Shown here: positions 9,763 through 58,213 of the stretch, in pieces
Layout of the letters: the number at the start of each line of letters is the position of its first letter
Position numbering within the stretch: the first letter of the stretch is position 1
Assembly (NCBI GenBank): GCA_023435745.1
Contig: JAEZMD010000018.1
Coordinates: forward strand, 472,265-536,264
DNA length: 64,000 bases
Reading direction: 5' to 3'
From: Bacillota bacterium
GTDB taxonomy: Bacteria > Bacillota > Clostridia > Acetivibrionales > DTU013
Translations under genes and position numbers: made by a program
Notes under the pieces: generated by a model
The model's database searches: none
Seen by the model: the letters and a program-made list of their open reading frames with translations, nothing else
What the model was told of the DNA's origin: nothing

Positions 9763-9778
9763 GTTGAACAAATAGTAT

Positions 9779-37250: not shown

Positions 37251-37832
37251 ATGAAACGCCGATATAAAATCCTTACAGTCGCAGTGCTTATCATACTTGC
37301 CATCTCACTGAGCATGAATATTGTCTCTGCAGTCACCCAGAACGCAGAGCCCGGTTCCGATCAGGATCCAATCGTCAGTAAAAGCTACGTTGATGCAGCA
37401 ATAAACCAATTATCATCAAAGCTCCAGTCTTTGCTTAATGAGGTCGGCGCATTGAAAACACAGAACACCCAGCTGACGACGAAGCTGACAAGTCAGGAGC
37501 AGACAATCAAGGCATTGCAGACGGAACTGAAGGCAGTGAAGGAAGGCGTCAAAGGCTCCGGATCAACCGGCTCAGGGACCTCAGAGTCAGGCGGTAACAC
37601 AGGTACTCCCGGCGGGACAGCGACTGCGCCGACGACACTTGGCACAGGAGTAATTAAAACAGCAGTCGTCAATTTACGCGCACAGCCGAATACCACATCA
37701 ACCATAGTGGGTAAGCTGCTCTTGAATAACACCGTAACGCTGGTATCCAAAACCGGTAACTGGTATCAGGTAAAGACCGCCAGCGGAAAGACAGGATATA
37801 TCAGAGAAGATTTACTTACAGTAAAAAAATAA
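37251..37832 (+). CDS. membrane-anchored coiled-coil protein with a C-terminal bacterial SH3 domain
   Basis: Signal anchor (ILTVAVLIILAISL), a coiled coil (LQSLLNEVGALKTQNTQLTTKLTSQEQTIKALQTELKAVK), a G/S/T linker, and SH3b (VNLRAQPNTTSTIVGKLLLNNTVTLVSKTGNWYQVKTASGKTGYI). Confidence 0.85.
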   Translation: MKRRYKILTVAVLIILAISLSMNIVSAVTQNAEPGSDQDPIVSKSYVDAAINQLSSKLQSLLNEVGALKTQNTQLTTKLTSQEQTIKALQTELKAVKEGVKGSGSTGSGTSESGGNTGTPGGTATAPTTLGTGVIKTAVVNLRAQPNTTSTIVGKLLLNNTVTLVSKTGNWYQVKTASGKTGYIREDLLTVKK

Positions 37833-37877
37833 TGTGAAGCTTATAACGAACTGGCGGGAGACATTTCTGCAGCCCCG

Positions 37878-40253
37878 TTACAGCTTCACCTTGCCGTTCT
37901 TTATCAGTTCCAGATTTTTATCGATGAGGCTGCTTCTGATCTGCACACATTCGTAGGATATGAGCGGATCCTCCGGTGTGTTGAGCACATAGTCCAGCAT
38001 TTTGTCTATGGAGGTTCTTGCTACGTGCATCCGTGTGTCTGAGGAGGCGTAATAGATTAGAAGCTCGCCATTGTCTCTGGCTACTGCGCCGTTGCAGAAG
38101 ATAACATTGGATACGTCTCCGATCCTTTCCTCGCCTTCGGGTGCGATCAGGAAGCCTCCCGGCCTATGGGTGACCACGTGTGGGTTCCGAAGGTCGGAAA
38201 GGAATGCGTATACCACATAGCGCAGTCCTGCCGCGGTATTCCTGACACCGTGTGCGATATGCAGCCAGCCTTTTTTTGTTTTGATTGGCGCAGGCCCCTG
38301 ACCATTTTTTACTTCCTTGATGGTATGGTATTCCTTGCACTCCATCAGAGTTTCTTCATCGATGCGGGCGTTCTCCATGGAGTCTGTAAGCCCCCAGCCA
38401 ATGCCGCCGCCTTTTCCGGTTTCGATAAAGCCGTCCTGCGGTCTGGTATAGAGGGCATATTTTCTATCGACAAATTCCGGATGAAGTACAACATTTCTCT
38501 GTTGAGGAGATTTTGTCTTCAAATCGGGGAGACGCTCCCACGTCTTTAAATCTCTGGTGCGAGCTATACCACAGGCAGCCACTGCGCTTGAGGTGTCACC
38601 GAACGGAGCGTCCGGATCCTTGCGCTCTGTGCAGAACAAGCCGTACATCCAGCCGTCCTCATGCTTTGTGATCCTCATATCATAAACATTCACGTCGGGA
38701 TTCTCTGTTTGCGGCATCACAATGGGATAATCCCAGAATTTGAAATGGTCAATGCCATTATCGCTTTCCGCTATGGCAAAGAAGGATTTGCGGTCATTTC
38801 CCTCAACACGGGCCACCAGATATATCCTGCCGTCAAGCTCAACAGCTCCCGCATTGAATACGCAGTTTACTCCAATGCGTTCCATAAGCCAGGGGTTTGT
38901 TCTTTCATCCAGATCATATTTCCAGAAAACAGGGATATGATCGCGGGTCAGAACCGGATTCTCAAATCTCTCAAATATCCCGTTCCCGACGCTCTTTGGC
39001 GTATTGCTGAGCTGCGTGACCGTATTGTATTCCTGCATCAGCAGGTTGAGTCTTTTTTCAAAGGCTTGGCTGGACACTCTTGAAACTATCTCAAAGCACA
39101 TTCTGCTGTTGTGATACGGGCATTTCCATGAACCGGCTTTTTCCTCGCTGGTAAGTTCCGAGCCGTCCCGTGTGACTCCCCAATACCACTCGCCGTTTTC
39201 ACGGTCGACAAGATATTTTTGGATAAACTTCCATGTTTTCAATGCTTCGTCCAGGTATGCTTCATCGCCGGTGATCTGCCAGGCGTTGAAGAAACCAACC
39301 ACTGCTTCTGCCTGAGGCCACCAATCCTTCCGGTCATCAATTCCGGAAGACTCCATCTCATAGTATATACCGCCGTTGGCATGGTCCAGACCGTTTGCGC
39401 GCACCTCCTGCGCCATGCGGACAGCCGCTGTTTTTGCTTTCTCCAGCAACTCCGGATCTCCAAGAACATCTGCCGATTCATAGATGAGCCAGCTGCCTTC
39501 GATATTATGCCCATACGAATAGACATCGGCACAGGAAGTCCAGTCCATTGTAAAGAATAAGTCAAAGCTCCATGTTTCATGATTAATGATATGCTCAAGC
39601 AGAACTATCAGCAGCGAACGGAGGCTTTCTCTGAGCTGCGGGGAATCATGCACTCTCAGAAGGTTTGTATAGGCCTCCATTACGTGCAGATGTGTATTCA
39701 TCGACTTGGGTACATTCATATCCTTGTCGCTCAGACTCATATCGGTAAGTGCGGACCAATCCTGCTCAAGCGCTTCTATATATCCTCCGTACACCCTGTC
39801 ACGGGCATGCTTTTCCAGGCTCTCATACAGCTTGAGCGCCAGATCCAGAGCTTCAGTTTCGCCGAAAGCCCTGTAGTATTCGGACAGGCCGTAGATCGCA
39901 AAGGCTACCGAATACACCTGGTTTTTGGCGTCTATGGGCTGACCCTTGTGGTCGAGCATCCAGTATACACCGTAATTTTTATTATCTATGAAATGCTTTT
40001 TAATATATTCATAGGCCCGCCGGGCAATGTGCAGGTACTTTTCCTGAGAATAAAGCCGGTAGGCGGCGGAAAAGGTCCAGAGTATCCTGAAATTGAGAAC
40101 TGAAGCCTTGGCATAATCGGCTTTTATTTTCAGGTCATGAGAAATATAGCCATAAAATCCGCCATATTCGTTATCCTGTGAATAATTGATCCAAAACTCC
40201 AGAATATTGTCTCTCAGTTCTTTTTCTATTTCAGACTTAAATCGATTAAGCAT
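37878..40253 (-). CDS. fusion protein: N-terminal AGE-family cellobiose 2-epimerase and C-terminal GH130 4-O-beta-D-mannosyl-D-glucose phosphorylase
   Basis: One open frame. The N-half is collinear with Ruminococcus albus cellobiose 2-epimerase as I recall it. The C-half (from ...[12 protein letters not shown]) is collinear with Bacteroides fragilis mannosylglucose phosphorylase. Start ATG 40253 (MLNRFK...); TTG 40265 or GTG 40274 are possible. Confidence 0.85.
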
Positions 40254-40280
40254 ATCATTTTCCAAACAAACCACCTCTGA

Positions 40281-41291
40281 TTATCTGTATTCTAATTCAT
40301 CTCCGGGAGCCAGCTCGGAATGACTCTTTATGTAATCCACCAATTCATCAGCCTGTGCGAAGGCAAGAGCAACGTATGTGTCTGCCGCGCCATAATAGAT
40401 GGCAATCCTGCCGGTCTGTGCATCTGTGAGTGTTGCACAGGGGAATGCTACATTGGGAACAAAGCCTGTTGTTTCGTAGGGCTTTTCCGGAGTCAGAAGG
40501 TGTTCGTAGGCTCTGTACAGCACCTTTGACGGATTGCTGATATCGAGGATGGCGGCGCTCATACTGTAAACGTAACCGTTACAGGTAGTACAAACGCCGT
40601 GATAAAATAACAGCCAGCCTTCATCAGTCTCAATCGGGATAGGGCCTGCGCCGATTTTTGTTCCCTGCCACCAGCCGTTACCGCCTTTGGACATCACGCG
40701 CCTATGCCTGCCCCAGTACCTAAGGTCGGAGCTTTCACTGATAAATATGTCGCCAAAGGGCGTATGGCCGCTATCGCTTGGTCTGCTGAGCAGCATGTAC
40801 TTGTCGTTTATTTTTCTCGGGAAAAGGACGCCATTTCTATTGAAAGGAGGAAATGGGTTTTCAAGCCGGACAAAGCTCTTAAAATCGGTTGTCATTCCCA
40901 TGCCCAGCGCTGCTCCGCCAAAATCGGTACACCAGATAATATAATATACGCCGTCGATTTCGACAAGTCTTGGATCATATGCATAATTGGGATTGAAGGG
41001 CTTGCCATCCTCGTCCTTCCAGTCAATGACATTGTCGTCGAGATCCCAGTGGATAGCGTCCTTGCTGCGCCCGACGTGAAGATTGGCTTTACCGTCGGTG
41101 CGATCCGCCCTGAAAATGCCCATGAATCCGTCTCCGTACGGAACCACTGCGCTATTGTAAACGCGCGGGCAATGAGGTGTGGGATTGCGGTCAATGATAG
41201 GGTTCTGGTCATACCTCCATATTACGCCCTGATACCCTTCAGGTTTGTCCTGCCAGGGAATATTCTTCAGTGGTCTGCCGATAATGCCCAT
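40281..41291 (-). CDS. GH130 beta-1,4-mannoside (oligosaccharide-type) phosphorylase
   Basis: 341 aa with a GH130 five-bladed propeller sequence (YNSAVVPYGDGF.GIFR, DPR...IDG.YYI.WC, NRNGVLFPRKI, LSRP, DIF...S.DL..WG, KIGAGP.PIET..GWL..YHGV, YYGAADT). ATG 41291 lies 8 nt after GGAGG. Its stop is 6 nt before the fusion gene. Confidence 0.88.
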   Translation of the reverse strand: MGIIGRPLKNIPWQDKPEGYQGVIWRYDQNPIIDRNPTPHCPRVYNSAVVPYGDGFMGIFRADRTDGKANLHVGRSKDAIHWDLDDNVIDWKDEDGKPFNPNYAYDPRLVEIDGVYYIIWCTDFGGAALGMGMTTDFKSFVRLENPFPPFNRNGVLFPRKINDKYMLLSRPSDSGHTPFGDIFISESSDLRYWGRHRRVMSKGGNGWWQGTKIGAGPIPIETDEGWLLFYHGVCTTCNGYVYSMSAAILDISNPSKVLYRAYEHLLTPEKPYETTGFVPNVAFPCATLTDAQTGRIAIYYGAADTYVALAFAQADELVDYIKSHSELAPGDELEYR

Positions 41292-41310
41292 GGATATGTC
41301 CTCCAAATAG

Positions 41311-41341
41311 TAATATTACACATAACAATATGTAATATTAT
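41311..41341. promoter_or_regulatory. AT-rich palindrome (candidate operator) in the divergent GH130/LacI control region
   Basis: aatattaca (41312-20) - 10 nt - tgtaatatt (41331-39), 20-50 nt upstream of the GH130 start codon. Confidence 0.4.
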
Positions 41342-41465
41342 CTTACCAGATGACAAGTGGGTTGTAAAGTGGTAATATAGTAGCAGGGGACATCGCTGTG
41401 AATAGATTCTGGGTATCGAAAAGCGGATGAATAAGGGATAAAAGTTCTTTATTGTTGGAGGAGTT

Positions 41466-42497
41466 ATGGCGGACAAGGTAAGCATGAATTCTATCGCAAA
41501 AAAACTTGGCATTTCAAAAAACACAGTATCACTGTCTCTCAGGGGAATGCCGGGCATAAGTGCGCATACCCGCAGGCTTGTACTGGATACTGCCGCGGAG
41601 CTTGGATATCATTACAAGCCATCGGGCGGGCAGGAGGAGAGCGCAAAGAACCTGTGCCTGGTCGTTCCGAAGAGTGCACAGAACTCATTTGACTTTTTCA
41701 GTCTGATTCAGATGGGCATTGAAGATGAAGCAAAGAAAAACAATATGAATACGATACTGCATTACTATGATGAGAACGATGAGGAATTCCAGACCCCACT
41801 TTGCATCAAGGACAAAATCGTGTCAGGCATCATCACCCTCGGCAGGGTATCTGAAAATACCGTAAAGGCCTTAAGTACCTATGAACTTCCGATTGTAATG
41901 GCGGACAATTATTTTGACGATATTGAAGTCGACTGTGTTTTGACGGATAATCACAATGGAGGCTACATAGCCACCGAATTTCTTATTGGCAAAGGACATA
42001 CGCAGATCGGTTTTTTCGGAAGCATCGATACATCCATCAGCTTTTATGACAGATTCATGGGTTACAAAAAAGCAATTGAGAGCCGCGGCCTGAAGATAAA
42101 TGAAAATATTGCCCCTTTTATTTCTGATGAAGTAAACACATGCGACGAGGCTGTGATCAGACTGAAGCAGCTGATGGCGAAGGGAAGTTTTCCTACAGCA
42201 TTTGTGTGCCGTAATGATGCCAGTGCTATTATCCTTTACAAAGCATTGAAGCAGATGGATGTTTCTATCCCGGGGCAGGTTTCTGTGATCGGCTTTGATG
42301 ATATCAGCTCGGCTGTTGATGTCTCCCCCGAATTGACGACAATGAGGGTCAATAAGGAATGGATGGGACGCAAGGCTGTTATGAAGCTGTTGGCGAGACT
42401 TGTCGAGCACGACGGCATTGCAGAAAAGCTGCTGCTGGCAGCCGAATTAGTAGAAAGGGACTCAGTCCGCACTTTAAAAATTATTTTTCAATTGTAA
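41466..42497 (+). CDS. LacI/GalR-family transcriptional regulator
   Basis: N-terminal HTH MNSIAKKLGISKNTVSLSLRG followed by a PBP-type effector domain. Divergent from the GH130 operon. Confidence 0.9.
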   Translation: MADKVSMNSIAKKLGISKNTVSLSLRGMPGISAHTRRLVLDTAAELGYHYKPSGGQEESAKNLCLVVPKSAQNSFDFFSLIQMGIEDEAKKNNMNTILHYYDENDEEFQTPLCIKDKIVSGIITLGRVSENTVKALSTYELPIVMADNYFDDIEVDCVLTDNHNGGYIATEFLIGKGHTQIGFFGSIDTSISFYDRFMGYKKAIESRGLKINENIAPFISDEVNTCDEAVIRLKQLMAKGSFPTAFVCRNDASAIILYKALKQMDVSIPGQVSVIGFDDISSAVDVSPELTTMRVNKEWMGRKAVMKLLARLVEHDGIAEKLLLAAELVERDSVRTLKIIFQL

Positions 42498-46231: not shown

Positions 46232-47386
46232 TCATTCTTCCAAGGGCTGCCTGAAAAGCATGGTGAAGTAGCTTGTGGTATAGTCGGCGCCACCGCCCGC
46301 GATTGCATATGAATTACTGTGACCGGTCACCAGGGGTCCCGACGCGCCGATTTCATCCATTGCAGCGAGCAGGGACAGGATGGAGGGAGGTGAGTCGATG
46401 TTATCGTTCCCCATCCGGATTATCGCTTCAGTATTACGTGATTCAATTGCTTTGAGTGTGATTTCATCCATTCTGTCTGCGGTGTATGTGTCAAGATAAT
46501 GCGAAAAATCAATAGAAGCGATGACCATAATCTCCGGATTATCCTGCATTGCTGCTGCGAGATGCTCACCAAGTTTCTTTGAGTCGGCTGCGGAATAATT
46601 TCCGTGGAGCAGGATGGGAACGATCTTTGTATCGGGCAGATAGTATTTTATATATGGTACCAGTCCGGAGATTGAATGCTCGAGCTCCATAAGCGAATCG
46701 TTTTCAGACGAGCCCAGTTCGTCAATCAGGCCGGTGGCAAGCTTCCGGTCGGCTTCAAGCATTCCAAAGGGCGTTCTCCAATCCAAAAGGGAGGTGTGCA
46801 GACCTTTCAGCCCAATTCGTCTGTGGTTGGGTGCAATCACGACAATTGTTTCGGGAGGTTCGTTAGAGAGCATCTGAAAAAAATCCGCAATCATATTTGC
46901 AGCCAGCAAATGATGCGGAACAACGCCGCCTGCAATGCGGCCGGATTCAACATTATCAATGTCATCAGCGCTATCGCTGCTAACGCCGCTGTCTCCGGCT
47001 GATTCAGCTTTAGTATTTGCGGCGGCAGCTGTTACCGATTTAAAAAAATCTTTTTCGGAATAGTGGATACATTGCAGTGTTGTGGTGGTACTGGTCACTG
47101 CTCCGGCGGGAAGGTCTTCAGATTCGGCGGGAATGTCCTCAGATTTGCCGGGAAAGTCTTCTGACTCGCCGGAATTAGTCGAATGACCGGCGGAAGAACC
47201 TCCGGATTGACTGGCATCAGCTGACTTGCCGGCAGAATCCGGCTGATCTGGAGACAGTGGTTTTTCGACCTCCAAAGTCTGTATCTGATTAGCCTGTCCT
47301 ATGAAGTCGAGGTTGAGAATCAGTACCAAAAAAAGGCAAAGCACGGCTGCAATGATTATTACTCTGCGCAAACCGTGCTTTGTCAT
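46232..47386 (-). CDS. Memo-family (AmmeMemoRadiSam system protein B-type) protein with an N-terminal TM anchor and an acidic repeat linker
   Basis: TM anchor RRVIIIAAVLCLFLVLILNL. The linker carries three SED(F/I/L)P units. Memo-like core: GGVVPHHLLA, VVIAPNHRR, LEHSISGLVPYIKYY, IASIDFSHYL, GHSNS. AGGAGG lies 7 nt before the ATG, 25 nt after the A2M stop. Confidence 0.75.
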   Translation of the reverse strand: MTKHGLRRVIIIAAVLCLFLVLILNLDFIGQANQIQTLEVEKPLSPDQPDSAGKSADASQSGGSSAGHSTNSGESEDFPGKSEDIPAESEDLPAGAVTSTTTTLQCIHYSEKDFFKSVTAAAANTKAESAGDSGVSSDSADDIDNVESGRIAGGVVPHHLLAANMIADFFQMLSNEPPETIVVIAPNHRRIGLKGLHTSLLDWRTPFGMLEADRKLATGLIDELGSSENDSLMELEHSISGLVPYIKYYLPDTKIVPILLHGNYSAADSKKLGEHLAAAMQDNPEIMVIASIDFSHYLDTYTADRMDEITLKAIESRNTEAIIRMGNDNIDSPPSILSLLAAMDEIGASGPLVTGHSNSYAIAGGGADYTTSYFTMLFRQPLEE

Positions 47387-47411: not shown

Positions 47412-50400
47412 TTACCTGATTGTTATCTGATCTTTTTTGGTAAACCCGGATATTGCATTATCTGTATGGCGGATCGCCGCGTTGTCCGCAGTAAACGCTC
47501 CTTCGGTGACAGCCATTGCTTCATAAAAAATTGCTTTTACAGGTTTGCCCTTTACATAGTAGTATCCAAAGACTACCTTCTGACCGGTCACTTCGTCCGG
47601 CCAGGAATTGTCATCATAGTATGCCGACGGAATAAATCTGAAGCCGGCAGGCAATATATCAGTGATCTGGTAGTAGCCGTCCGGCGCTGTAGCGCCAAAT
47701 ACGGGCGTAATCGTTATTTTTACCTTATCGGACCGGTTAAAATCGGTTGTTGTTTTGTTGCCGGAGACGAGAGCGTAGGAGCGTAAAATTGACACCTGGC
47801 TGCCGTCGGTATTGCGGATCTGACTGACAGGAGCAACATGGGAGGCCGCAACCTGCACTTTTCCCTGTATATTACTGAATTTGAGGGAGGCAAGCAGCTC
47901 CGGCGTCAGATCAAGTCTGAAGGTTCCGCCATTCTGCAATTCCACCTGCTTTTTCACTCCGTTCAGTTCATAGCTGAAGCTGTTGTTCAGACTGGCCTGC
48001 TTGATATGATTCGACACAAAGATCATTCTTTCCAGGTTGACCAGAAGCTCTGAGGTGGAATTCGACTTGATATAATTGAAGAGCTTTAGCTTTTCAGGTT
48101 CATTCGTCTTCAGCGCGATCAGTGAGCAAAGAGCGGTAGCGTCAATGCTCTCATCCCTTGTTCCTGTCTCAAGCCAAGCCAGTGTTTCGGTGATTGTTCC
48201 GGATCTTTCCATTGCTTCGGTGTAAATATCCTTTGCGCCCTGGAAATCGCCTATTTCTGCCAGCGCCACGCCAAGTACCAGCCTGAGCTCAGGGGTCAGT
48301 TCATCTGACTCAAGAGCCGCGCGTATATCAAGCAACACCGGTTCGTTCAAGGCTGCAAGACCCCAATAGCTGTAGGCGGCATCCTCCGGCATGGTTTCTT
48401 CATTTTCAAGAATCCTTGTGAAGTATGCTGCAAGAGCGTCCCTGTCAATACCATCGGCAGCAAGAGCGGCCATTTTTGCGGATAACGCGGGGTTGCTGCT
48501 GTCATAAGTAAGCAGCGCGAGTCCGCCGTCGTCGGTCTGATATTGACGCAGATCAGATTCTTCATCCATATATGGTTCTTCATTGAAATAATTGAGTAAA
48601 AGCTTTCCTGCCAACTGGCGCGCCAGCTTCTGATCCAGCCTCTGACCCCAACTCCAGTACAGTGAATGCAGTTCATTGTAAAGTGCCGCCGAGTCTTCGC
48701 CGTAGAACACCAGTGAAGTCAGGCCCTTAGCTGAATTTTCTATGGTCATGCCTTCGGCAAGGCTTATATAATCTGTCACAGAGGTCTCCAACAGGCTGTC
48801 TGAAACTCTGAATGGACGTTCCATGGCATCCGTCAGTTTACCGCTGGAGGCTTCCACCTTTACGGTATAGCTGCCTGCGGAAAGGGGCCCCACGGGCAGT
48901 TGAACAGGTGTGTGTGCCACGCCTGCTGCTGTAAATGATTTGGATGCGCCGCCGGTTTGCGTAACGGTGATTTTGTAGTCTACAGCGGCTTTTTCCGCGA
49001 GCTCTGTACCGTAGGCTCTCATCAATATTGATGGATTATCTCCCGTGATAAAGTTCGAATTAAATATCGTATCGACAAAGAATGGCAGCTTCGAGGAAAT
49101 GTTGAGCTTCCCGCTCCCTGCAAACAGGTCTTCTGTGACAGCCTGCCAGGTGATTCTCCAGGAAGTCAGGTTATCTGGCAGCTTGAAGCTGACTTCCGCC
49201 TTTCCGTCACTTCCTGCGGTAACAGTCGTGAACAGAGCACTGTCCTTGAAGTCCGCTCTGACGTAAGCGTCGCCGCCTTCTCCCATCTCCGCCATCGGCG
49301 GACCCATTGTACTCAGGGGTGAAGAATATGAGAGATACTCCGTGAGGATGCCTGATGAGATCCCGGCTCCGTAAATAGAGGACAACAGATCGACAGACTG
49401 ATTGTACATGGCAAAGAAAGCCTCATCCACAACGCTGATATTCATTTGTGCAGCATGCGGCTTTCCGTCGGCGTCTTTTATCTCAAAGGCAAGGTTGACA
49501 GTCTCACCGGGCTTATAGTACTCTTTATCCTGTTTTATGCTGACCTCCAGATTTTTCTCGGTCTTATCAAACCGATATTCCAGGATGCCGGCATCGTACA
49601 TGTCCGTTCCGTCAAAGTACACGGCTTTGATATAAATATTCGGAATGAATTTCTCCTCATAGTTGAAATTAAACACAGGATCGGGAGACAGTTTGTAATC
49701 CATTACGCCGTTTTGCAGACGGAGGAACAGGAATTTGCCGTTTCCGCTATTTACAACGGGCTCTCCCTTATACTTCACTTCAAGAGATACAGGGGCGCCC
49801 AGCCTGCGTGAACGGTCAGGATCCTTTGAGGTCAGTGAGTAAAGGCTGGTGTCATAGGGATCATAATAGTCCCAGTTATAGATGTATTCCGTCTCATCAA
49901 TAACACGACCCTGGGAGTCTGCACCGGTGATACGAACATGGTAGTTTTTGTTCTTTTCGGTGGTGAACTCGAGCTCATATTTGCCGTTCACAGTATTGAA
50001 TGCGTATTGGTTAATCAGATTGTTCACTTCTTTATAATCATAGGTATTCCTTTTTACCTTGTTGATATAGTCATAATATTCTCCTGTGATGATCTGTTCG
50101 TAATATCTTTCGTAAAGCTCCACCCGTACAGGCATATCAACGGAGGCGCCTTTGTATGCTTCCTCCATATAATAGTAGTTTGAGGAATTATTCTCCAGCT
50201 TAGATAGATCAATCCTGTTAGTTTCAAAGCTCAGTGTTGCTTTATTGCCCTCGATGTCTGAATCCATGGAAATCATCGTATCCTTTGGGAATACGGTCAC
50301 AAAGCCGGAAGCCTGAATCTGGCGCTCCTCCGCTTCACGGTTGTTGATATTCAGATAGAGAGAAACCGGTCTCCAACCGACGCTTATATTTGAAGAGGGC

Positions 50401-52361
50401 TGGATGGTCAATTTGGAGGAGCCCGCAGTATCGCTGGTCAGCACTCCGTTTTTATTATCAAATGCTCCTATGGAATAGTAGTAGTCAAGTTCGACGCCTG
50501 ATACCGGCGTGCCCTCAAAGAAGGAGGTGAGGAAGTTGAAATTGACGCTATCCCATGCGTACATATAATTCTTGTCTTTAGTGACATCAATTTTATATAC
50601 GGGTTTTGTGTATTCAATAATCTGAAGGTAGCGGGTTTGCATGATCTGGTCGCCGATACGCAGCCGTACCTCATAAGAGCCAGGGTTATAGTTGGATATT
50701 GCGAGTGTGCCGGTATAGGCGCCATTCGGCGAAATTTCGACATTCTGTGAGGCCAATACCGAGGGCTCCGAATCACCGGACGAATAGTAGTTGTACCTTA
50801 TCAATTCCAGTACGGCATCCTTTTGGCTGTCTTTCCCATCACGTGGTTTAAAAATGCCCCAGATGTTGATTTTATCAGTTGGAAGGAATACATCTTTATC
50901 CAGATAGATATACGACCAGTAATGATCTATAATATCCGTACCGTCGTAATAGCTGTAATATGGTTGGTATTGATAGTTCGCAAGCTCTGCAATATATACC
51001 GGACCCGATGCCGGAGTGATTAGGAAGAAGGAGGAGGAGTCCCTGCTGTTGGGTACATCAAGAACGGCCAATCCATTCCGATCCGATTTGACCGATTTTC
51101 CGCCGTCAAGCTTGAACTCTGCGCCGGACAATGGTTCGCCGGTGGCCGAATCATTCAGCCAGGCCAGTGTCTCAGAGGTGGTCTTCATGATATACACCGA
51201 CGCGGGATGAACCTGAACCTGAGTATAGTACTTTACTCCGTCAACCTCTGCTACCATCAGGTAATAACCACTGGGCAGAGCAGAAGGGAGTACGAGGAAA
51301 TTGCTGTGCCAGTAGCTTTGTACAAATTTAGCGACTCTGCCGGTGAGCGTTGCTGTTTTTTGCAGCTTTGTCTCATCGTATCCGACCTTTGTTCTATCGC
51401 GCAAATACCACGTGGACGAAAGCTGGGAGGCATCCTTCAGATCCTTCAGAAAGCTGTTCGCGTCCGGGTAGCTGTATATCTCAAGAGGAACCTCGGAATC
51501 TGTCATATCGTTCTGCGAATAAATCTCAAAGGCCGGAGCGGTCTGAGGATTGAAGCTGTAGAAGGTATTTGAAAATTCAAAATAAGTGCGGTTGGTTTGG
51601 GTTTCCGGCAAAACGGTCTGGAAACTGAAGGTATAGTCTTCCTTGAGGGGATCTGCGCTGCCTTCGACGGCAATGCCCTTTTTAATTGTGACCGTATAGA
51701 TAGTGCTTTCCTCCAGACCTTCCGGAACAAAGACGACAGTTTTGCCGTGCCACTCAAAACGGCCTTTTACAGCGGGTGATATTTCAAAGAATTTTTCAAT
51801 GTTCTGAGCATTTTCATGGCTGAAGGTGATTTCGATACCGGATGCCAGCGGCACCTGCACGCCTTGATTGCGGGGCAGGGTACGGACGACATTAAAGGCT
51901 TTTTTAGTCTGGAATGCCCACGAATGCTTTTCTCCTGTGTTATTATCGCTCAAAATAAAGTTATAAACGCTGTCGCTTTGCAGTGGCTTTTCAAACTCCA
52001 TGCTGTATTCCTTTGCAGAAACCTTTGTCAGCTTGAATTTCTGTTTTGGCTTGATACTCAGAGATTTCTCAAGCTCCTTTTCGTCCGGCGTCCTGGTGAA
52101 TACAAGCTTGAATGCGGAGGTCAGGCTCACACCCAGACTGTCGGCGTCGACGGCCGATATCTTTACATCCGTATCCAGAAAGCGCACAGTTCCCTCTTGT
52201 GTGGCGGTGGGTTCTTCATTGTAAGACGGCTGCTCCATATCCTTGCGGTCGAATGCACCCAGCAGCGCAGCGGCGCCAAAGCCGACAGCCAGCACGAGAA
52301 CAGATATTATTGTGATCAAAACGGGTTTTTTTCTTAGATACCCTGACAATTTATTTATCAT
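47412..52361 (-). CDS. giant (1649 aa) membrane-anchored alpha-2-macroglobulin family protein with no thioester motif
   Basis: N-terminal TM anchor and Ig-like/SbsA-type N-terminal domains. A2M hallmark FKDSALFTTVTAGSDGKAEVSFKLPDNLTSWRITWQAVT. The TED-like alpha-helical region reads LYWSWGQRLDQ where CxEQ would be expected. Confidence 0.8.
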   Translation of the reverse strand: MINKLSGYLRKKPVLITIISVLVLAVGFGAAALLGAFDRKDMEQPSYNEEPTATQEGTVRFLDTDVKISAVDADSLGVSLTSAFKLVFTRTPDEKELEKSLSIKPKQKFKLTKVSAKEYSMEFEKPLQSDSVYNFILSDNNTGEKHSWAFQTKKAFNVVRTLPRNQGVQVPLASGIEITFSHENAQNIEKFFEISPAVKGRFEWHGKTVVFVPEGLEESTIYTVTIKKGIAVEGSADPLKEDYTFSFQTVLPETQTNRTYFEFSNTFYSFNPQTAPAFEIYSQNDMTDSEVPLEIYSYPDANSFLKDLKDASQLSSTWYLRDRTKVGYDETKLQKTATLTGRVAKFVQSYWHSNFLVLPSALPSGYYLMVAEVDGVKYYTQVQVHPASVYIMKTTSETLAWLNDSATGEPLSGAEFKLDGGKSVKSDRNGLAVLDVPNSRDSSSFFLITPASGPVYIAELANYQYQPYYSYYDGTDIIDHYWSYIYLDKDVFLPTDKINIWGIFKPRDGKDSQKDAVLELIRYNYYSSGDSEPSVLASQNVEISPNGAYTGTLAISNYNPGSYEVRLRIGDQIMQTRYLQIIEYTKPVYKIDVTKDKNYMYAWDSVNFNFLTSFFEGTPVSGVELDYYYSIGAFDNKNGVLTSDTAGSSKLTIQPSSNISVGWRPVSLYLNINNREAEERQIQASGFVTVFPKDTMISMDSDIEGNKATLSFETNRIDLSKLENNSSNYYYMEEAYKGASVDMPVRVELYERYYEQIITGEYYDYINKVKRNTYDYKEVNNLINQYAFNTVNGKYELEFTTEKNKNYHVRITGADSQGRVIDETEYIYNWDYYDPYDTSLYSLTSKDPDRSRRLGAPVSLEVKYKGEPVVNSGNGKFLFLRLQNGVMDYKLSPDPVFNFNYEEKFIPNIYIKAVYFDGTDMYDAGILEYRFDKTEKNLEVSIKQDKEYYKPGETVNLAFEIKDADGKPHAAQMNISVVDEAFFAMYNQSVDLLSSIYGAGISSGILTEYLSYSSPLSTMGPPMAEMGEGGDAYVRADFKDSALFTTVTAGSDGKAEVSFKLPDNLTSWRITWQAVTEDLFAGSGKLNISSKLPFFVDTIFNSNFITGDNPSILMRAYGTELAEKAAVDYKITVTQTGGASKSFTAAGVAHTPVQLPVGPLSAGSYTVKVEASSGKLTDAMERPFRVSDSLLETSVTDYISLAEGMTIENSAKGLTSLVFYGEDSAALYNELHSLYWSWGQRLDQKLARQLAGKLLLNYFNEEPYMDEESDLRQYQTDDGGLALLTYDSSNPALSAKMAALAADGIDRDALAAYFTRILENEETMPEDAAYSYWGLAALNEPVLLDIRAALESDELTPELRLVLGVALAEIGDFQGAKDIYTEAMERSGTITETLAWLETGTRDESIDATALCSLIALKTNEPEKLKLFNYIKSNSTSELLVNLERMIFVSNHIKQASLNNSFSYELNGVKKQVELQNGGTFRLDLTPELLASLKFSNIQGKVQVAASHVAPVSQIRNTDGSQVSILRSYALVSGNKTTTDFNRSDKVKITITPVFGATAPDGYYQITDILPAGFRFIPSAYYDDNSWPDEVTGQKVVFGYYYVKGKPVKAIFYEAMAVTEGAFTADNAAIRHTDNAISGFTKKDQITIR

Positions 52362-52651: not shown

Positions 52652-54979
52652 ATGACTGGCGATAATATTTTAGCATTAATCGATAAAATGACACTTGAAG
52701 AAAAAGCAGGTATGTGCTCGGGCAAAAATTGGTTCGAAACTAAAGATGTAGAGCGATTGGGCATCCCTAGAATACAGATGTTTGATGGACCAAATGGTCT
52801 TAGAAAAAATGCGGGTAGAAGTGAGAATGATAATTTTGGAGGGTATACTGCTGTAAAGTCTACTTGTTTTCCCACGGGTAGCGCAATGGCAGCATCATGG
52901 GACGTTGATCTTCTTTATGAGATTGGGCAAAAAATGGGCGAAGAATGTCAAACGGAGCAAGTTCCGCTTTTACTTGGCCCAGCAATTAATATGAAGCGTT
53001 CTCCTCTTTGCGGAAGAAATTTTGAATATCTATCGGAGGATCCATATCTAGGAGGCAAACTTGCAGCTGCTCTTGTGAAAGGCATACAATCGCAAGGGGT
53101 AGGAGCATGCTTGAAACATTTTGCAGCGAACAATCAAGAATATAGACGATTGTCCGTAAATAGCATAATAGACGAACAAACACTAAGAGAAATTTATTTG
53201 ACTGCTTTTGAGATTGCAGTAAAAGAAGCAAGTCCGCTGACAATTATGTGTGCATATAACATGATTAACGGTACGCATTGCTGTGAGAACAAGCACATAC
53301 TTAATGACATATTGCGTGAAGAGTGGGGCTTTGAAGGAATTGTCATATCTGATTGGGGTGCTATGAATCATAGAGTTGAATCGCTTGCTGCAGGACTTGA
53401 ACTTGAGATGCCTTACAGTGGACCTGAAAATGACAGTCAAATTATTAGTGCTGTAAAGTCGGGTGAGCTCAGTGAAGATATACTCAACAGATCTGTTTAC
53501 AGATTATTAAAGTTTATTTTTAAAGTATATGAATCAAAGAAGAAAAGTTATATTTTCAATAATAAAGAACATCATCATTTCGCAAGAAAAGCTGCATCAG
53601 AATGTATGGTTCTTCTGAAAAATTCTGATAGCCTGCTCCCTCTTAAAGCCAATACAAAAATTGCGCTTATCGGAGAAATGGCAGAGTTCACAAGATATCA
53701 GGGCGGTGGAAGTTCTCATGTTACAGCTACATGTATAGACAATATCTTAACCGAAATGAAGTCAAAGACCGGTAGTTTTACATATGCAAAGGGTTATAGC
53801 CTTTCAGAGGATGATGTAAATTATGATCTGATAAATGAAGCTACATTACTTGCCCAACAAAATGAAGTGGCTGTTATTATTGCAGGACTCCCGGATAAAT
53901 ATGAATCTGAACATTACGACAGGCCTTCTATGAAGATGCCTGACGGTCATGTTAAATTGATTGAAGCGGTAGCGAAAGCTAATCCTAACACGGTGGTTGT
54001 TCTGCTAAATGGATCCCCGGTTGAAATAGGCTGGGAAAGCAGTGTTAAAGGAATTCTTGAAGCTTATCTTGGGGGTCAGGCTACAGCAGGAGCTATTTGT
54101 GATATTTTGTTCGGGGATGTAAACCCAAGCGGAAAACTGGCAGAATCTTTTCCTATAAAGCTTGAAGATAATCCGTCATTTCTCAATTATTCAGACGATA
54201 CATATGAAGTTAATTACCATGAGTGCGTTTATATCGGCTATCGGTACTATGATAAAAAAAAGATGCAAGTACAGTATCCTTTTGGATTTGGCTTAAGTTA
54301 TACAACATTTTCTTACAGTGATATCAGGGTTGATAAAAAAGACATAATTGCCGGTGAAGAAGTATGTATCACAGTAAAAATAAAGAATACCGGAAAAGTC
54401 AAGGGTAAAGAGATTGTTCAGCTTTACACCGGGCCTGTTTGCACTGCAGGAAGACCGGTCAAGGAACTTAGGGCATTTAAAAAAGTTGAACTTTACCCCG
54501 GAGAGGAAAAAACAATTTCCTTCACACTTGGTAAACGTGGATTTGCGTATTACAACGCTTATATTAGTGACTGGCATGTGAAAAGCGGAAAATATAGTAT
54601 CTATGTTGGATCATCATCCAGAGATATTCACCTGATTGAAACAATTAACATAATTACTGATGTTGATGTAACACGTGCTATTGATATTAATACAACACTG
54701 GGCGATTTGCTCGAAGACAGCAGGACTGCAGAAGTAACGCTGGAAATGCTAAAAAAACATGCCCCTAGTGTTTTAGCATATCACAATAAAGATACAGACA
54801 TTGATTACAGCGCTATTAGTGTAGATATGGCAAAAGAGATGCTGCATAATATGCCGCTTAGAGAGGCGCGCCTATTTTCAAAAGGAACAATGACTGACGC
54901 AATATTAAATGATTTTATTATAAAACTTAATAATATTATTAATGCATCGGAGGTTCCAAATGGAAAAGTCGCCCATTAA
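52652..54979 (+). CDS. GH3 family beta-glucosidase/beta-glycosidase (no signal peptide)
   Basis: GPNGLR, KHFAANNQE, nucleophile context GIVISDWGA, and a C-terminal fibronectin-III-like domain (FGFGLSYTTF...). Confidence 0.9.
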   Translation: MTGDNILALIDKMTLEEKAGMCSGKNWFETKDVERLGIPRIQMFDGPNGLRKNAGRSENDNFGGYTAVKSTCFPTGSAMAASWDVDLLYEIGQKMGEECQTEQVPLLLGPAINMKRSPLCGRNFEYLSEDPYLGGKLAAALVKGIQSQGVGACLKHFAANNQEYRRLSVNSIIDEQTLREIYLTAFEIAVKEASPLTIMCAYNMINGTHCCENKHILNDILREEWGFEGIVISDWGAMNHRVESLAAGLELEMPYSGPENDSQIISAVKSGELSEDILNRSVYRLLKFIFKVYESKKKSYIFNNKEHHHFARKAASECMVLLKNSDSLLPLKANTKIALIGEMAEFTRYQGGGSSHVTATCIDNILTEMKSKTGSFTYAKGYSLSEDDVNYDLINEATLLAQQNEVAVIIAGLPDKYESEHYDRPSMKMPDGHVKLIEAVAKANPNTVVVLLNGSPVEIGWESSVKGILEAYLGGQATAGAICDILFGDVNPSGKLAESFPIKLEDNPSFLNYSDDTYEVNYHECVYIGYRYYDKKKMQVQYPFGFGLSYTTFSYSDIRVDKKDIIAGEEVCITVKIKNTGKVKGKEIVQLYTGPVCTAGRPVKELRAFKKVELYPGEEKTISFTLGKRGFAYYNAYISDWHVKSGKYSIYVGSSSRDIHLIETINIITDVDVTRAIDINTTLGDLLEDSRTAEVTLEMLKKHAPSVLAYHNKDTDIDYSAISVDMAKEMLHNMPLREARLFSKGTMTDAILNDFIIKLNNIINASEVPNGKVAH

Positions 54980-55853
54980 TAGACGGAAGCTTGATTTCTT
55001 TCCCTACCTGATGTCTTTGCCTTCATTAGTAGGGATCGGACTAATTTGCTTTTATCCCATGTTCCAAGGTATATATTTGAGCTTCACGAAAACAAAGTTG
55101 ACGGCGCCGGGGGATATGCGATTTATTGGCTTGGAAAATTTTCAAAAACTTGCCGTTGACAAACAATTTTGGAATTCATTTTATTTTACAATTGTATATA
55201 CCTTAGTATCTACCATATTTGCTTACCTGCTAGGCCTTGCTGTGGCATTGATGATGAATAGAGATTTAAGATTTAAAAGTGCCATAAGAGCATTATTGCT
55301 GCTTCCTTGGGTTGTACCTGCGGTTGTAGGGACAACTGCATGGCAGTGGATACTTAATGATCAGTCCGGTGTTGTTAACATTTTTTTGCAGAGCATCGGA
55401 TTAATAAAATCACCTATTCTATTTCTTGCAAATCCGGATTATGCAGTAATAACAGTTATCGCGTTTTGCGTATGGAAGACCTTCCCGTTTATGGCTATTA
55501 CAATCCTGGCAAGCTTGCAAGGAATAAGCGGTGATATAAATGAAGCGGCATTGATGGACGGTACTAATATATTTCAAAGATTTCACTATATTACATTACC
55601 AATGATCAAGCGAGAGAGTATTCTTGCAATTATGCTTATGATTATGTGGAACTTCAATAGGATGGACTACATATATCTTATGACACAAGGCGGCCCGGTT
55701 TCGGCAACTCGAGTATCAGCTATCTATGCATATTTTACGGCTTTCTTCAGAGGAAGCCTGGGTAGTGCTTCTGCTATATCTGTGTCAATGATGCTGATTA
55801 TGATTGCTTTTCTGTTTGTCTACTTTAAAATACGGAAGGATGGGAATGACTGA
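54960..55853 (+). CDS. carbohydrate ABC transporter permease (MalF/CUT1 type)
   Basis: Six TM helices and an EAA loop (EAALMDGTNIFQRFHYITLPM). ATG 54960 follows GGAGG and overlaps the GH3 3' end. Confidence 0.9.
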   Translation: MEKSPINRRKLDFFPYLMSLPSLVGIGLICFYPMFQGIYLSFTKTKLTAPGDMRFIGLENFQKLAVDKQFWNSFYFTIVYTLVSTIFAYLLGLAVALMMNRDLRFKSAIRALLLLPWVVPAVVGTTAWQWILNDQSGVVNIFLQSIGLIKSPILFLANPDYAVITVIAFCVWKTFPFMAITILASLQGISGDINEAALMDGTNIFQRFHYITLPMIKRESILAIMLMIMWNFNRMDYIYLMTQGGPVSATRVSAIYAYFTAFFRGSLGSASAISVSMMLIMIAFLFVYFKIRKDGND

Positions 55854-56686
55854 TGGCAAAGAAAATATTAAATAGAATTGGCGCCGATTTGTTGCTTGCA
55901 ATAATGTTATTCATTATCCTTTTTCCGATAATGTATATGATTATTACATCATTAAAATCCAGCGGTGAAATACTGGTAAATAGGAGCTTAGTACCAAAGG
56001 AGATTTCTCTGGAAAATTACAGAGAGATTGTTATTAAAACGAATTTTGGTAAATACACATTAAATTCATTATATGTAGCTATTATAGTTACAATATGGAC
56101 GACTATTTTTGCATCAATGACAGGCTATGTTATTGCGCTTTATAAAAATAAAAATATATTCTTTAATATTTTTTCAAAATTGCTTTTAGTGCTTCAAATG
56201 TTTCCAATTATGCTAATGATCATACCTCTTTACAGGACATTCTCACTTTTTGAATTACTTAATTCGAAAAATGCGCTAGTAATTATTTATGGTACATTTT
56301 CATTACCTTTTTCAATATGGCTTCTTTCAGGCTTTTTTGAAGGGTTCCCAAGAGAATTGGCGGAATCGGGCCGTATTGATGGGTGCAATAAACTGGAAAT
56401 ATTTATAAAGCTTGTGATTCCAATCTCGAGTCCGGGTATAGCGTCTGCAGCTATATTTACATTCATCAATTCATGGAATGAATTTATGATTGCAAATATA
56501 TTTATTCAAAGCGATTCAGAAAAAACAATTCCATTGGGTCTTACAAATTTCATTCTGCAATTCGGTTCAGAGTGGGGTAATTTGATGGCGGCAGCAACCA
56601 TCACTATTATACCGGTATCAATTTTCCTGGTCTTCACACAAAAGTATATTGTACAGGGTTTAACTGCCGGGGCAATTAAAGGATAG
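55853..56686 (+). CDS. carbohydrate ABC transporter permease (MalG/CUT1 type)
   Basis: EAA loop ESGRIDGCNKLEIFIKLVIPIS. ATGA overlap with the upstream permease. Confidence 0.9.
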   Translation: MAKKILNRIGADLLLAIMLFIILFPIMYMIITSLKSSGEILVNRSLVPKEISLENYREIVIKTNFGKYTLNSLYVAIIVTIWTTIFASMTGYVIALYKNKNIFFNIFSKLLLVLQMFPIMLMIIPLYRTFSLFELLNSKNALVIIYGTFSLPFSIWLLSGFFEGFPRELAESGRIDGCNKLEIFIKLVIPISSPGIASAAIFTFINSWNEFMIANIFIQSDSEKTIPLGLTNFILQFGSEWGNLMAAATITIIPVSIFLVFTQKYIVQGLTAGAIKG

Positions 56687-56797
56687 CTTTACGCGTAAAG
56701 GATCAATAATAAAGACGAGGAAAGGAGGAGAACCGGAAGGGTAAAGAAGTATGTTTAAATCCAGATGCAAAACAATTATATGAGGGGGGTAACAAGA

Positions 56798-58168
56798 ATG
56801 AAAAAACTAGTATGTCTTACCATGTGTTGTCTGCTTATATTTAGTATTGCAGCTTGCGGCAATACGGTAAATGAGAAATCACCTGCTACAAATGAGAAAT
56901 CACCTGCTACATCAGAGAGTACAGAACCAGCAGCTTCATCGGCAAGTACTCAGAAAGATACAGAAGCCGGTGATGTTACATTGGAGTTCTGGGACATGCC
57001 ATGGGGCGGTACAGATTATCAAGCGGAGGTTAACTCACTTTTAGCATCATATACAGAGAAAACAGGTATTAAGTTCAACTACACAAGTCTTTCTTGGGAT
57101 AAATGGCTGCAGGTTTTTATGACAGCTGTTTCCTCGGGAACCGCTCCTGATTTTAGTACAGGCGGGTCACTGTTAGGTCATCGTTTGGCTTTAACAGACG
57201 ATGCATACAATATGGCGGACTTTGTAAAAGAGAACTTCGAAGATGACTTCTTTGCTGATGAAGCTGTTGATACCTTCTATTCCGGGGACACACTTGTCGG
57301 CGTACCGTGGAATATGGATCTTCGCAGTATATACTACCGTAAAGATATATTTGAGAAAGCGGGCATCACTAAGCTCCCGACAACATGGGATGAGTTTTAT
57401 GAGACATGTAAAAAGTTAACACATGATAGTCAGTACGGATATGTTACAAGTGGCAGTGATAATATGGCATATTGGGAATTCATGTTTTGGTCAGTGAGTA
57501 ACGGAGGGCACTTCCTTAATAGTGAGATGAAATCTGAAATGGATAACGATGCAAACATAGAAGTGGCGAATTATCTTCGTAAGCTTTACAAGGATGGTCT
57601 CATGCCTGAGGGAACGCCGGGTTATACAAAGAGTGATTCAAAAACTGCATTCCTGTCAGGTACATCAGCTATGGTAATGGCAGGTCCAAGTTTTCTAGCT
57701 GAAATTAAAAAAGCTAATCTTGGGGATGTTGTCGGTGTACTTCCTCCTATGACATCACCTGGCGGATTAACACAGTCAGTTGGCAGCTTTAATGCGATAT
57801 TTGTTTATGCAGACTCGGAATATACAAAAGAATCACTTGATTTTATTTCATGGTATCTAAGAAACAATAGTACATTATGGTCAAAAGGTGGTATGGGATC
57901 TCTGCCGGCAGTAAAAAGTACTCTATCTGATAAGTTCTTTTCAGATAGTAAACTGCACAAGGAGCTTATTGATAATATCATTCCGAAGACCGTAATTCAA
58001 GCGTATCCGTTTAAGAGCTATTCAATTGAAATGGATCTGATGGACAGTGAGCAGTACTACACAGATGTTCTTCAGGCTGTTTATGTAACAGATACAGATG
58101 CAAAAGCAATTCTGGAAGATGCAGATGATAACTATAATGCTGCACTTGAAGAACTAAAGTCTAACTAA
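56798..58168 (+). CDS. extracellular solute-binding lipoprotein (CUT1 family)
   Basis: Lipobox FSIAAC and an SBP_bac_1-type sequence. Start at ATG 56798 after GAGGGGGG. The linker carries a perfect NEKSPAT duplication. No ATPase gene lies in the island. Confidence 0.88.
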   Translation: MKKLVCLTMCCLLIFSIAACGNTVNEKSPATNEKSPATSESTEPAASSASTQKDTEAGDVTLEFWDMPWGGTDYQAEVNSLLASYTEKTGIKFNYTSLSWDKWLQVFMTAVSSGTAPDFSTGGSLLGHRLALTDDAYNMADFVKENFEDDFFADEAVDTFYSGDTLVGVPWNMDLRSIYYRKDIFEKAGITKLPTTWDEFYETCKKLTHDSQYGYVTSGSDNMAYWEFMFWSVSNGGHFLNSEMKSEMDNDANIEVANYLRKLYKDGLMPEGTPGYTKSDSKTAFLSGTSAMVMAGPSFLAEIKKANLGDVVGVLPPMTSPGGLTQSVGSFNAIFVYADSEYTKESLDFISWYLRNNSTLWSKGGMGSLPAVKSTLSDKFFSDSKLHKELIDNIIPKTVIQAYPFKSYSIEMDLMDSEQYYTDVLQAVYVTDTDAKAILEDADDNYNAALEELKSN

Positions 58169-58181
58169 AATTAAAAGCGTC

Positions 58182-58213
58182 ATTCGGCGCCTGTGGTTAT
58201 ACAGGCGCCGAAT
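58182..58213 (+). terminator. GC-rich stem-loop after the binding-protein gene (putative terminator)
   Basis: attcggcgcctgt / acaggcgccgaat: 13-bp perfect stem, 6-nt loop. The T-rich tract is on the opposite-strand side only, so efficiency is uncertain. Confidence 0.5.

Follow-up and report, generated by a model that had tools for sequence, protein, structure and literature searches.

Mannan breakdown by a disaccharide 2-epimerase together with GH130 phosphorylases, and the gene sets that encode it, are known for Ruminococcus albus, Bacteroides fragilis, F. prausnitzii and C. japonicus (PMC8262883; PMC12871903). In the mannan gene sets of PMC8262883 (R. albus, B. fragilis, Roseburia intestinalis, F. 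prausnitzii and C. japonicus), GH130_2, Mep/CE (cellobiose 2-epimerase) and GH130_1 are encoded by separate genes, and the C. japonicus genes for CE and mannosylglucose phosphorylase (MGP) lie 2 bp apart (PMC12871903). Known MGPs are stand-alone chains of about 390 aa; BfMGP is given as hexameric and RaMP1 as trimeric (PMC8950772). In this study, we analysed a stretch of 64,000 nucleotides from a Bacillota bacterium (hereafter the window), whose locus has the same enzyme set and inferred reaction order as those mannan gene sets, but merges two of the three genes into one ORF (Table 1). We found no description of a CE-MGP fusion in the open-access papers searched, and the statement of an earlier note on this DNA that the two-domain architecture is uncharacterised appears to hold within those papers. 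The fusion is confirmed as a real, unstudied variant of a known pathway, and the chemistry itself is already known. Taken as a whole, the gene probably encodes a cytoplasmic bifunctional enzyme of about 90 kDa that would act in mannan breakdown and was fused from adjacent genes; we infer which sugars it acts on, that both halves are active and what selective benefit the fusion brings.

Table 1. Features of the CE-MGP locus, in positions of the window
Feature	Position	Strand	Basis or remark
CE-MGP fusion gene, 795 aa, likely start TTG 40265	37878..40265	-	ORF listing and Shine-Dalgarno GAGGTG
Cellobiose/mannobiose 2-epimerase domain, residues 9-400, (alpha/alpha)6 barrel	39075..40250	-	RmCE 3WKF match
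Epimerase H197	39684-39686	-	alignment to RmCE H200
Epimerase H256, presumably catalytic	39507-39509	-	alignment to RmCE H259
Epimerase H388, presumably catalytic	39111-39113	-	alignment to RmCE H390
Junction, residues 401-404 (SSQA)	39063..39074	-	no stop, start codon or Shine-Dalgarno remnant
A6 run in codons E406-K407-R408	39053..39058	-	MGP-type sequence in the same frame on either side
GH130_1 MGP domain, predicted catalytic D532 (38679-38681)	37881..39062	-	BfMGP 3WAS and RaMP1 5AY9 matches
Intrinsic-terminator-like hairpin, then U7	37823..37889	-	begins in the last fusion-gene codons
GH130_2-type gene, 336 aa, ATG 41291	40281..41291	-	PF04041 at 237 bits; Shine-Dalgarno GGAGG 41300-41304
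13-nt inverted repeat TAATATTACACAT / ATATGTAATATTA	41311..41340		between promoter-like sites and GH130_2 ribosome-binding site
Two sigma-70-like promoter matches	41340..41402	-	consensus matches only
LacI-family regulator, 343 aa, divergent	41466..42497	+	PF00356, PF00532, PF13377

The fusion gene lies in a single ORF at 37878-40274 on the minus strand, which has 798 codons at most, contains no internal stop and ends with TAA at 37878-37880. This is the continuous ORF that the earlier note had described, and all 14 of the peptide motifs quoted there are present in its translation. Residues are numbered here according to the 798-aa version, which begins with GTG 40274. This GTG is the most upstream possible start and falls within the Shine-Dalgarno sequence, which is located 6 nt ahead of TTG 40265. 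The identical 795-aa product (P0001) is recorded from NCBI, ENA and Logan assemblies. Public gene calls for the fusion gene and for the upstream GH130_2 gene begin at later codons than the longest ORFs, and the latter is also called as 336 aa in locus L001. The gap of 6 nt to the upstream gene that had been reported is correct only when counted from GTG 40274; from the likely TTG start, it is 15 nt.

Both halves of the protein were assigned in Pfam, where residues 39-388 hit PF07221 (E = 1.4e-42) and residues 469-763 hit PF04041 (E = 1.7e-24), in agreement with the previous placement of a cellobiose 2-epimerase at residues 8-400 or so and a GH130_1 MGP at about 401-798. The N-terminal half aligns end to end with RmCE of R. 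marinus: residues 9-400 match residues 12-402 of 3WKF in the PDB (E = 2.3e-102, 41% identity), and Foldseek superimposed this half of the model on 3WKF with a TM score of 0.96 and an rmsd of 1.0. RmCE, RaCE of R. albus (3VW5) and C. japonicus EpiA are AGE-superfamily CEs of the same type, but unlike known CEs, the window protein bears a C-terminal phosphorylase of 400 aa. The best PDB matches of the half are all CEs, with E-values of 1e-90 to 1e-102, and none is a GlcNAc 2-epimerase, whereas other AGE enzymes match at 1e-50 or weaker. The top NCBIfam model was EpiA, whose 364 bits are below its strict equivalog cutoff of 800 bits. R63, Y121, N193, H197, H256, E259, W318, W319, W383 and H388 are invariant across 43 fusion proteins and presumably include the sugar-contacting residues; we take H256, H388, H197 and E259 (aligned to RmCE E262) to have the catalytic roles of their RmCE equivalents. 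Thus, fold, catalytic residues and nearest matches support the assignment of the N-terminal half as a cellobiose/mannobiose 2-epimerase (EC 5.1.3.11).

In the C-terminal half, residues 408-792 match residues 7-390 of BfMGP (3WAS; E = 1.6e-164, 61% identity) and residues 413-791 match RaMP1 (5AY9; E = 2.9e-158, 62% identity). The MGP half of the model superimposes on 3WAS with a TM score of 0.95 and an rmsd of 1.9 in Foldseek. Residues 405-792 are collinear with the whole of these enzymes, and both the N- and C-terminal helices of 3WAS are present. D532, located in NVYDMR, is aligned with D131 of BfMGP, and all 43 fusions have it. These results support the classification of this half as GH130 subfamily 1 (mannosylglucose phosphorylase, EC 2.4.1.281), with a predicted five-bladed beta-propeller.

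The joint between the halves contains neither a stop nor a start and virtually no linker, as had been noted, and, unlike in stand-alone MGPs, the MGP N-terminal helix is joined straight to the epimerase C-terminus. An MGP-type oligomer of fused chains would have to accommodate N-terminal barrels of 45 kDa. In L026, the unfused pair closest to the window gene, a stop codon, a 38-nt spacer and an ATG stand at this point, and all three are gone from the window gene. The source is a metagenome assembly and a homopolymer sits at the junction, so it could be argued that there are really two genes and that the stop between them was lost by a base-call or indel error; a deletion of one base in the A6 run would bring a TGA in frame, overlapping the ATG of M413 as TGATG. 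However, the sequences that flank the run, FEK ahead of it and RLNLL behind it, correspond in one frame to the N-terminal helix that homologues have in their MGP part (compare FEKRLALL in P0004), and therefore the present frame is the coding frame. Besides, the window DNA is 100% identical to the ENA and Logan assemblies over 4429 nt, no stop-plus-start remnant is found at the junction, and seven other loci, one of them in the complete genome of an isolate, were verified to have the same architecture (see below). With this evidence, an artefact is extremely improbable, and the view that the fusion was not produced by the A6 run stands. At the sequence level, the gene is confirmed as a genuine natural single-chain fusion in which both sets of catalytic residues are intact. 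We also considered M413 as an internal start that would give free MGP from the window gene. This was rejected, as there is no Shine-Dalgarno-like sequence ahead of M413; the Kineothrix-type junction, in contrast, keeps an internal AGGAGA-N6-ATG element.

The product of the gene upstream of the fusion gene is most similar to phosphorylases of beta-1,4-mannooligosaccharides or N-glycan mannosides (best PDB matches TM1225, 3.2e-147; RaMP2, 8e-121; UhgbMP, 3.7e-118) and is probably a beta-1,4-mannooligosaccharide phosphorylase, as judged from its sequence. Ahead of it are two putative promoters on the minus strand that match the consensus, TTCACA-17-TATATT (41402-41374) and TTTACA-17-TAAGAT with a TG (41368-41340). 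The TGTAATATTACA-like motif is present in two copies at the inverted repeat, and elsewhere in the window it occurs at chance level only. This suggests that the repeat is a candidate operator of the divergent LacI-family regulator, whose gene reached no NCBIfam equivalog cutoff and lies where the earlier note had seen it. The terminator-like hairpin (-24 kcal/mol, z-score -2.6) is followed by AUUAUUUUUUU. These signals support the idea that the fusion gene comes second in an operon of two genes, composed of promoter-like sites and the palindrome, GH130_2, the fusion and the terminator, and that the two genes are co-transcribed, as had been proposed.

The window locus consists of two genes and a regulator and lacks the esterases, GH113 or GH26, transporter and PMM found elsewhere. 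Mannanase, transporter, phosphomannomutase and isomerase genes are not next to the module, unlike in two other loci with the fusion (L083 and L084), which have the make-up of canonical mannan loci, namely GH26, CE2 or GDSL esterases, GH130_2 and PMM. The claim that the window holds no transporter is correct for the immediate neighbourhood, but not for the whole window: the segment 52652-59535 carries a GH3 gene along with genes for two permeases, for a solute-binding protein and for a ROK regulator, and 5764-9762 holds a second sugar ABC system. Neither cluster is adjacent to the module, and the operator-like motif did not occur above chance at these distant ABC/GH3 clusters.

We propose that GH130_2 shortens longer beta-1,4-manno-oligosaccharides to mannobiose, that the N-terminal barrel of the fusion would then epimerise the reducing-end mannose of beta-1,4-mannobiose to give Man-beta-1,4-Glc, and that the C-terminal GH130_1 domain would phosphorolyse this product to alpha-mannose-1-phosphate together with glucose. 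The operon is probably under LacI control. Alternatively, only one half might be catalytically relevant, with the epimerase serving as a binding or regulatory module, or the enzyme might have another specificity and act on cellobiose- or lactose-type beta-1,4 disaccharides. Characterised cellobiose 2-epimerases accept several beta-1,4 disaccharides, and in the window the module has neither a mannanase nor a mannan-specific transporter next to it, both of which favour this alternative. However, the catalytic residues of both halves are invariant in 43 diverged fusions, and the C-terminal half matches MGPs at 1e-164 but other GH130 specificities in the PDB (RaMP2, UhgbMP and beta-1,2 enzymes) at 1e-20 or weaker. 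Furthermore, other fusions sit in the canonical mannan loci mentioned above. We consider this alternative very unlikely, and a mannobiose-directed bifunctional enzyme remains our preferred reading.

The fusion is not restricted to the window. The PF07221 plus PF04041 architecture was found in 42 further clusters at 90% identity, with proteins of 773-839 aa in which the epimerase always comes first. The architecture is thus not singular, and it also occurs in an isolate genome. Continuous fused ORFs were verified on the DNA of L006, L021, L022, L043, L083, L084 and L085; L085 is the cultured isolate Kineothrix sp. MB12-C1, whose complete genome (CP132957.1) carries a 780-aa fused ORF. Other examples are an 825-aa protein (P0026) of a Spirochaetaceae MAG and the Treponema MAG locus L006. 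The other fusions share with the window protein the domain order, intact catalytic residues and short linkers, but those given here as examples (Kineothrix, P0026 and L006) are only 45-57% identical to it. This low identity and their phylogenetic separation suggest that the window fusion and the other fusions are independent in origin.

Adjacent but unfused genes are the majority state, with CE-to-MGP spacers of 0-50 nt, and adjacent pairs at the loci examined are in the order CE-MGP in 38 cases and MGP-CE in 13. The loci came from a scan of species representatives, among which the window's own genome is not included. The nearest relatives of the window genes (L026, L027 and L034) are all unfused; the epimerase and MGP halves are 58% and 78% identical to those of L026 and 51% and 76% to those of L027, compared with 46% and 71% for the best fusion. 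In neighbour-joining trees of each half, 13 changes between the fused and unfused states and 17-18 separate all-fused clades were counted, although the number of independent origins is approximate because the trees are simple and midpoint-rooted, and fission is indistinguishable from fusion. The sequence comparisons therefore indicate that the fusion arose repeatedly, in an approximate number of events, from neighbouring genes. It would have originated by loss of the stop codon, spacer and start codon between tightly coupled epimerase and MGP genes. Adjacent genes in this order are what is usually found in Bacillota and in several further phyla. Such an event has occurred repeatedly in other lineages.

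The earlier note had also suggested that the fusion channels the epimerised disaccharide. In such an enzyme, the active sites would have a fixed geometry, maybe within an MGP oligomer, and Man-Glc would be passed on without bulk equilibration, a property that would have been selected for. The fusion has recurred convergently with the epimerase always first, linkers are mostly very short (median 5 residues; 8 or fewer in 29 of the 43 fusions), and some fused clades hold 5-11 diverged members, which suggests that the fused state persists. In the window model, one continuous helix (residues 387-420) is predicted to run across the junction. All of these are in favour of channelling. However, linkers range from 2 to 36 residues, and the independently fused P0028 was modelled with a helix-loop-helix at the junction. 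The pTM values of the window and P0028 models are 0.66 and 0.68 in spite of a pLDDT of about 90 per domain, and therefore the relative orientation of the domains is not confidently predicted. Most lineages, moreover, manage with two separate genes. Neither the constant order nor the short linkers need selection for geometry, because the former follows from the CE-MGP gene order in those lineages and the latter from the spacers of 0-50 nt. Thus, with linkers that vary, junctions that differ in geometry and mediocre inter-domain confidence, the channelling claim is left without support, and we consider true channelling unlikely. We are similarly doubtful of a reading in which the recurrent fusions reflect convergent adaptation and not a near-neutral decay of operons. 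In that case, the fused chains would form an MGP-type oligomer decorated with epimerase barrels, a de facto "mannobiose phosphorylase" in which kinetic coupling or channelling draws the reversible epimerisation forward. The benefit of the fusion most likely lies in obligatory 1:1 co-expression and co-localisation of two enzymes, the first of which catalyses a freely reversible step; a dedicated channel is the less probable benefit.

If both halves are active, the protein would be a natural single-chain catalyst that converts mannobiose and Pi to mannose-1-phosphate and glucose. It may then be useful for the enzymatic synthesis of sugar phosphates and oligosaccharides, or as a compact module where mannan use is to be engineered. 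The fusions, repeated and independent as they are, also offer a clean natural experiment on the circumstances in which neighbouring genes of a pathway become fused and on whether a kinetic benefit follows. Surveys of GH130 that count CAZy modules alone cannot detect the CE-MGP architecture. In the Kineothrix genome, the NCBI protein record consists of the C-terminal 392 aa only; since at least one complete isolate genome records only this half, pathway reconstructions may wrongly miss the epimerase step.

Fused and unfused proteins were found together within 90%-identity clusters, and strain-level polymorphism or read-through by gene callers was considered. These were rejected on the DNA: read with the standard code, L083 and L084 have clean ORFs, what passes for a "separate" GH130 in Kineothrix is a partial call within the intact 780-aa ORF, and P0293 begins at an internal Met within the last epimerase helix. 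Programmed read-through was also considered, as in 13 top-ranked loci CE and MGP are in the same frame with one stop between them. This was rejected as a ranking artefact. The in-frame excess at the top ranks arises because tblastn scores straight through one stop, and among the lower-ranked adjacent CE-MGP pairs (L026-L082), two of 18 are in frame.

An earlier note had claimed a single uninterrupted ORF joining a cellobiose/mannobiose 2-epimerase (CE) to a GH130_1 mannosylglucose phosphorylase (MGP). All peptide motifs that it quoted were found in the translation, and the CE/MGP junction reads through without a stop. GTG 40274, the most upstream start, falls within the Shine-Dalgarno sequence GAGGTG; TTG 40265, located 6 nt past GAGGTG, is the likely start, and its 795-aa product matches public gene calls. 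The upstream GH130 gene is a co-directional neighbour as stated, but the gap from TTG 40265 is 15 nt, not 6 nt.

Both halves of the protein (798-aa numbering from GTG 40274) were identified. Pfam assigns PF07221 to residues 39-388 and PF04041 to residues 469-763. Residues 408-792 are collinear, end to end, with residues 7-390 of B. fragilis BfMGP (PDB 3WAS; E 1.6e-164, 61% identity), and residues 413-791 match R. albus RaMP1 (E 2.9e-158, 62% identity). Residues 9-400 match residues 12-402 of R. marinus RmCE (PDB 3WKF; E 2.3e-102, 41% identity), and the remaining strong matches of this half are cellobiose 2-epimerases without exception. When superposed, the AlphaFold2 model (mean pLDDT 91.5) reaches TM 0.95 against 3WAS and 0.96 against 3WKF; structure comparison found no solved chain spanning more than half of it. 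The MGP catalytic Asp is kept (D532, BfMGP D131), as are H197, H256, E259 and H388 (RmCE H200, H259, E262 and H390, whose roles in the epimerase are described in the literature). Each is invariant in 43 fusion proteins.

The fusion is very unlikely to be an assembly artefact of the A6 run at the junction. Over 4429 nt, the window DNA has the same sequence as a metagenome scaffold from ENA and a Logan contig that was built independently. Both flanks of the run match, in the same frame, the N-terminal helix of homologous MGPs (FEK|RLNLL vs FEKRLALL in database protein P0004), and thus the run did not create the fusion, as had been argued.

Among 5.8 billion proteins searched, the identical protein was found along with 42 further clusters with both domains (773-839 aa, 45-57% identity, 97-99% query coverage), and the epimerase is N-terminal in all 42. 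When 1.84 billion representatives clustered at 50% identity were searched exhaustively, only about three of the best 150 matches were fused, the rest being stand-alone epimerases and phosphorylases. We also scanned species-representative genomes, checking each locus for one stop-free ORF with both domains. True fusions occurred in one Treponema, two Clostridia and one Lachnospiraceae MAG. The majority state was two adjacent genes, 38 CE→MGP and 13 MGP→CE. The latter (L058-L060, L064-L066, L069, L070, L073, L074, L077 and L080 among the loci compared) are mostly from Bacteroidota, plus the Treponema MAG L064, and their gene ends overlap in some cases. No MGP-first fusion was found among the proteins listed.

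Annotation conceals part of the family. Some 90%-identity clusters contain both fused and half-length members. At the DNA level, L083 and L084 are clean fused ORFs in the standard code. In the isolate Kineothrix sp. MB12-C1, the complete genome (CP132957.1) carries an intact 780-aa CE-MGP ORF (L085 1837-4179; 778/780 identical to the database protein P0034), of which only the C-terminal 392-aa GH130 is recorded (WP_306722141.1), started at an internal AGGAGA-N6-ATG; no recorded product spans the epimerase half. P0293, an NCBI 'glycosidase' of 404 aa, starts at a Met within the last epimerase helix. These cases indicate that the mixed clusters arise from partial gene calls on intact ORFs. In Lachnospiraceae junctions (L012, L013, L014, L083, L085), the epimerase C-terminal Arg-Arg codons AGG AGA are the Shine-Dalgarno of the downstream MGP. 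This signal and the ATG are retained inside some fused ORFs, suggesting that these may also make free MGP.

The halves of the window protein (CE/MGP) are nearest to unfused pairs, L026 (58%/78%) and L027 (51%/76%), the best fused homologue reaching only 46%/71%. L026 and L027 are its sisters in neighbour-joining trees of either half. Parsimony on the two trees requires 13 switches between the fused and unfused states; separate all-fused clades number 17-18, and some of them have 5-11 diverged members. Spacers in unfused pairs are 0-50 nt long, and in some pairs an ATG immediately follows the stop. Compared with L026, the window gene lacks the stop codon, the 38-nt spacer and the ATG and retains both protein termini. 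In-frame single-stop pairs seemed over-represented among the top matches, which was rejected as a tblastn ranking artefact.

The closest solved relatives of the upstream GH130 are TM1225, RaMP2 and UhgbMP, and it is therefore of GH130_2 type. By homology to the mannan pathway of R. albus, B. fragilis, F. prausnitzii and C. japonicus (PMC12871903 and PMC8262883), this enzyme would shorten manno-oligosaccharides to mannobiose, the N-domain would epimerise mannobiose to Man-Glc, and the C-domain would phosphorolyse Man-Glc to Man1P and glucose. The earlier proposal that the fusion channels the epimerised disaccharide between domains is not supported. Linkers vary from 2 to 36 residues (median 5), the junction is one continuous helix (residues 387-420) in the window model but helix-loop-helix in an independently fused member, and pTM is 0.66 and 0.68 for the two models. 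Simpler explanations are that the two enzymes are co-expressed and kept close together, or that coupled genes fused near-neutrally.

The LacI-family gene reported beside the module is present. The inverted repeat contains two TGTAATATTACA-like palindromes and is a candidate operator for this regulator; elsewhere in the window, this operator-like motif did not rise above chance.

Features of the fusion operon and its surroundings (window positions)
Feature	Position	Strand	Remarks
CE-MGP fusion ORF	37878..40274	-	uninterrupted; 798 codons at longest
Hairpin then U7	37889-37823	-	3' end of fusion gene
GH130_2/fusion spacer	15 nt	-	includes Shine-Dalgarno of fusion gene
GH130 gene, 336 aa	ATG 41291	-	GGAGG before start; first gene of operon
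13-nt inverted repeat	41311-41340		between promoter-like sites and GH130_2 ribosome-binding site
Two sigma-70-like promoter matches	41402-41340	-	consensus matches upstream of GH130_2 gene
LacI-family gene	from 41466		divergent to operon
Monosaccharide-type ABC transporter	5.8-9.8 kb		Peripla_BP_4, double ABC ATPase, BPD_transp_2
ABC transporter, then second binding protein, His_kinase/HAMP sensor, AraC-type response regulator	5764-14103
GH3 gene (775 aa), two CUT1 ABC permeases, solute-binding protein, ROK regulator	52652-59535		~11 kb from mannan module

Both enzymes and the pathway are already known, and the fusion, already present in databases, is of the classic Rosetta-stone type. The architecture had been called uncharacterised, and no description of it was found in the open-access full-text literature searched. 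A 2020 GH130 survey counted CAZy modules alone and gave >99% of predicted mannoside phosphorylases as monomodular. We regard the CE-MGP fusion as an uncharacterised form of well-known enzymes and a well-known pathway. Pfam scans also showed GH130_1 with phosphomannose isomerase (P0048) or phosphoglucomutase/phosphomannomutase (P0049, P0125), GH113 with epimerase (P0063) and epimerase with aldose 1-epimerase (P0071); GH5 and GH9 with epimerase come from precomputed database Pfam domains only. P0055, P0064, P0074, P0101, P0119 and P0120 are further entries in this list of same-pathway fusions. P0068 showed the epimerase domain alone at E<=1e-8 in the Pfam scan, and P0143 this domain with a below-cutoff Lar_N-like match.

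The module had been said to have no transporter of its own in the window; this is true of its immediate neighbourhood, but two sugar ABC systems lie elsewhere in the window. In F. prausnitzii, GH3 beta-glucosidases are part of the mannan system (PMC8262883). No link of the GH3/ABC cluster or the monosaccharide-type ABC system to the fusion operon was found. The unit at 5764-14103 is a sugar-sensing two-component unit, separate from the fusion finding. A 1649-aa bacterial alpha-2-macroglobulin-like protein (Big_5, A2M_BRD, A2M; 47412-52361, minus strand) adjoins a Memo-like protein (46232-47386, minus strand).
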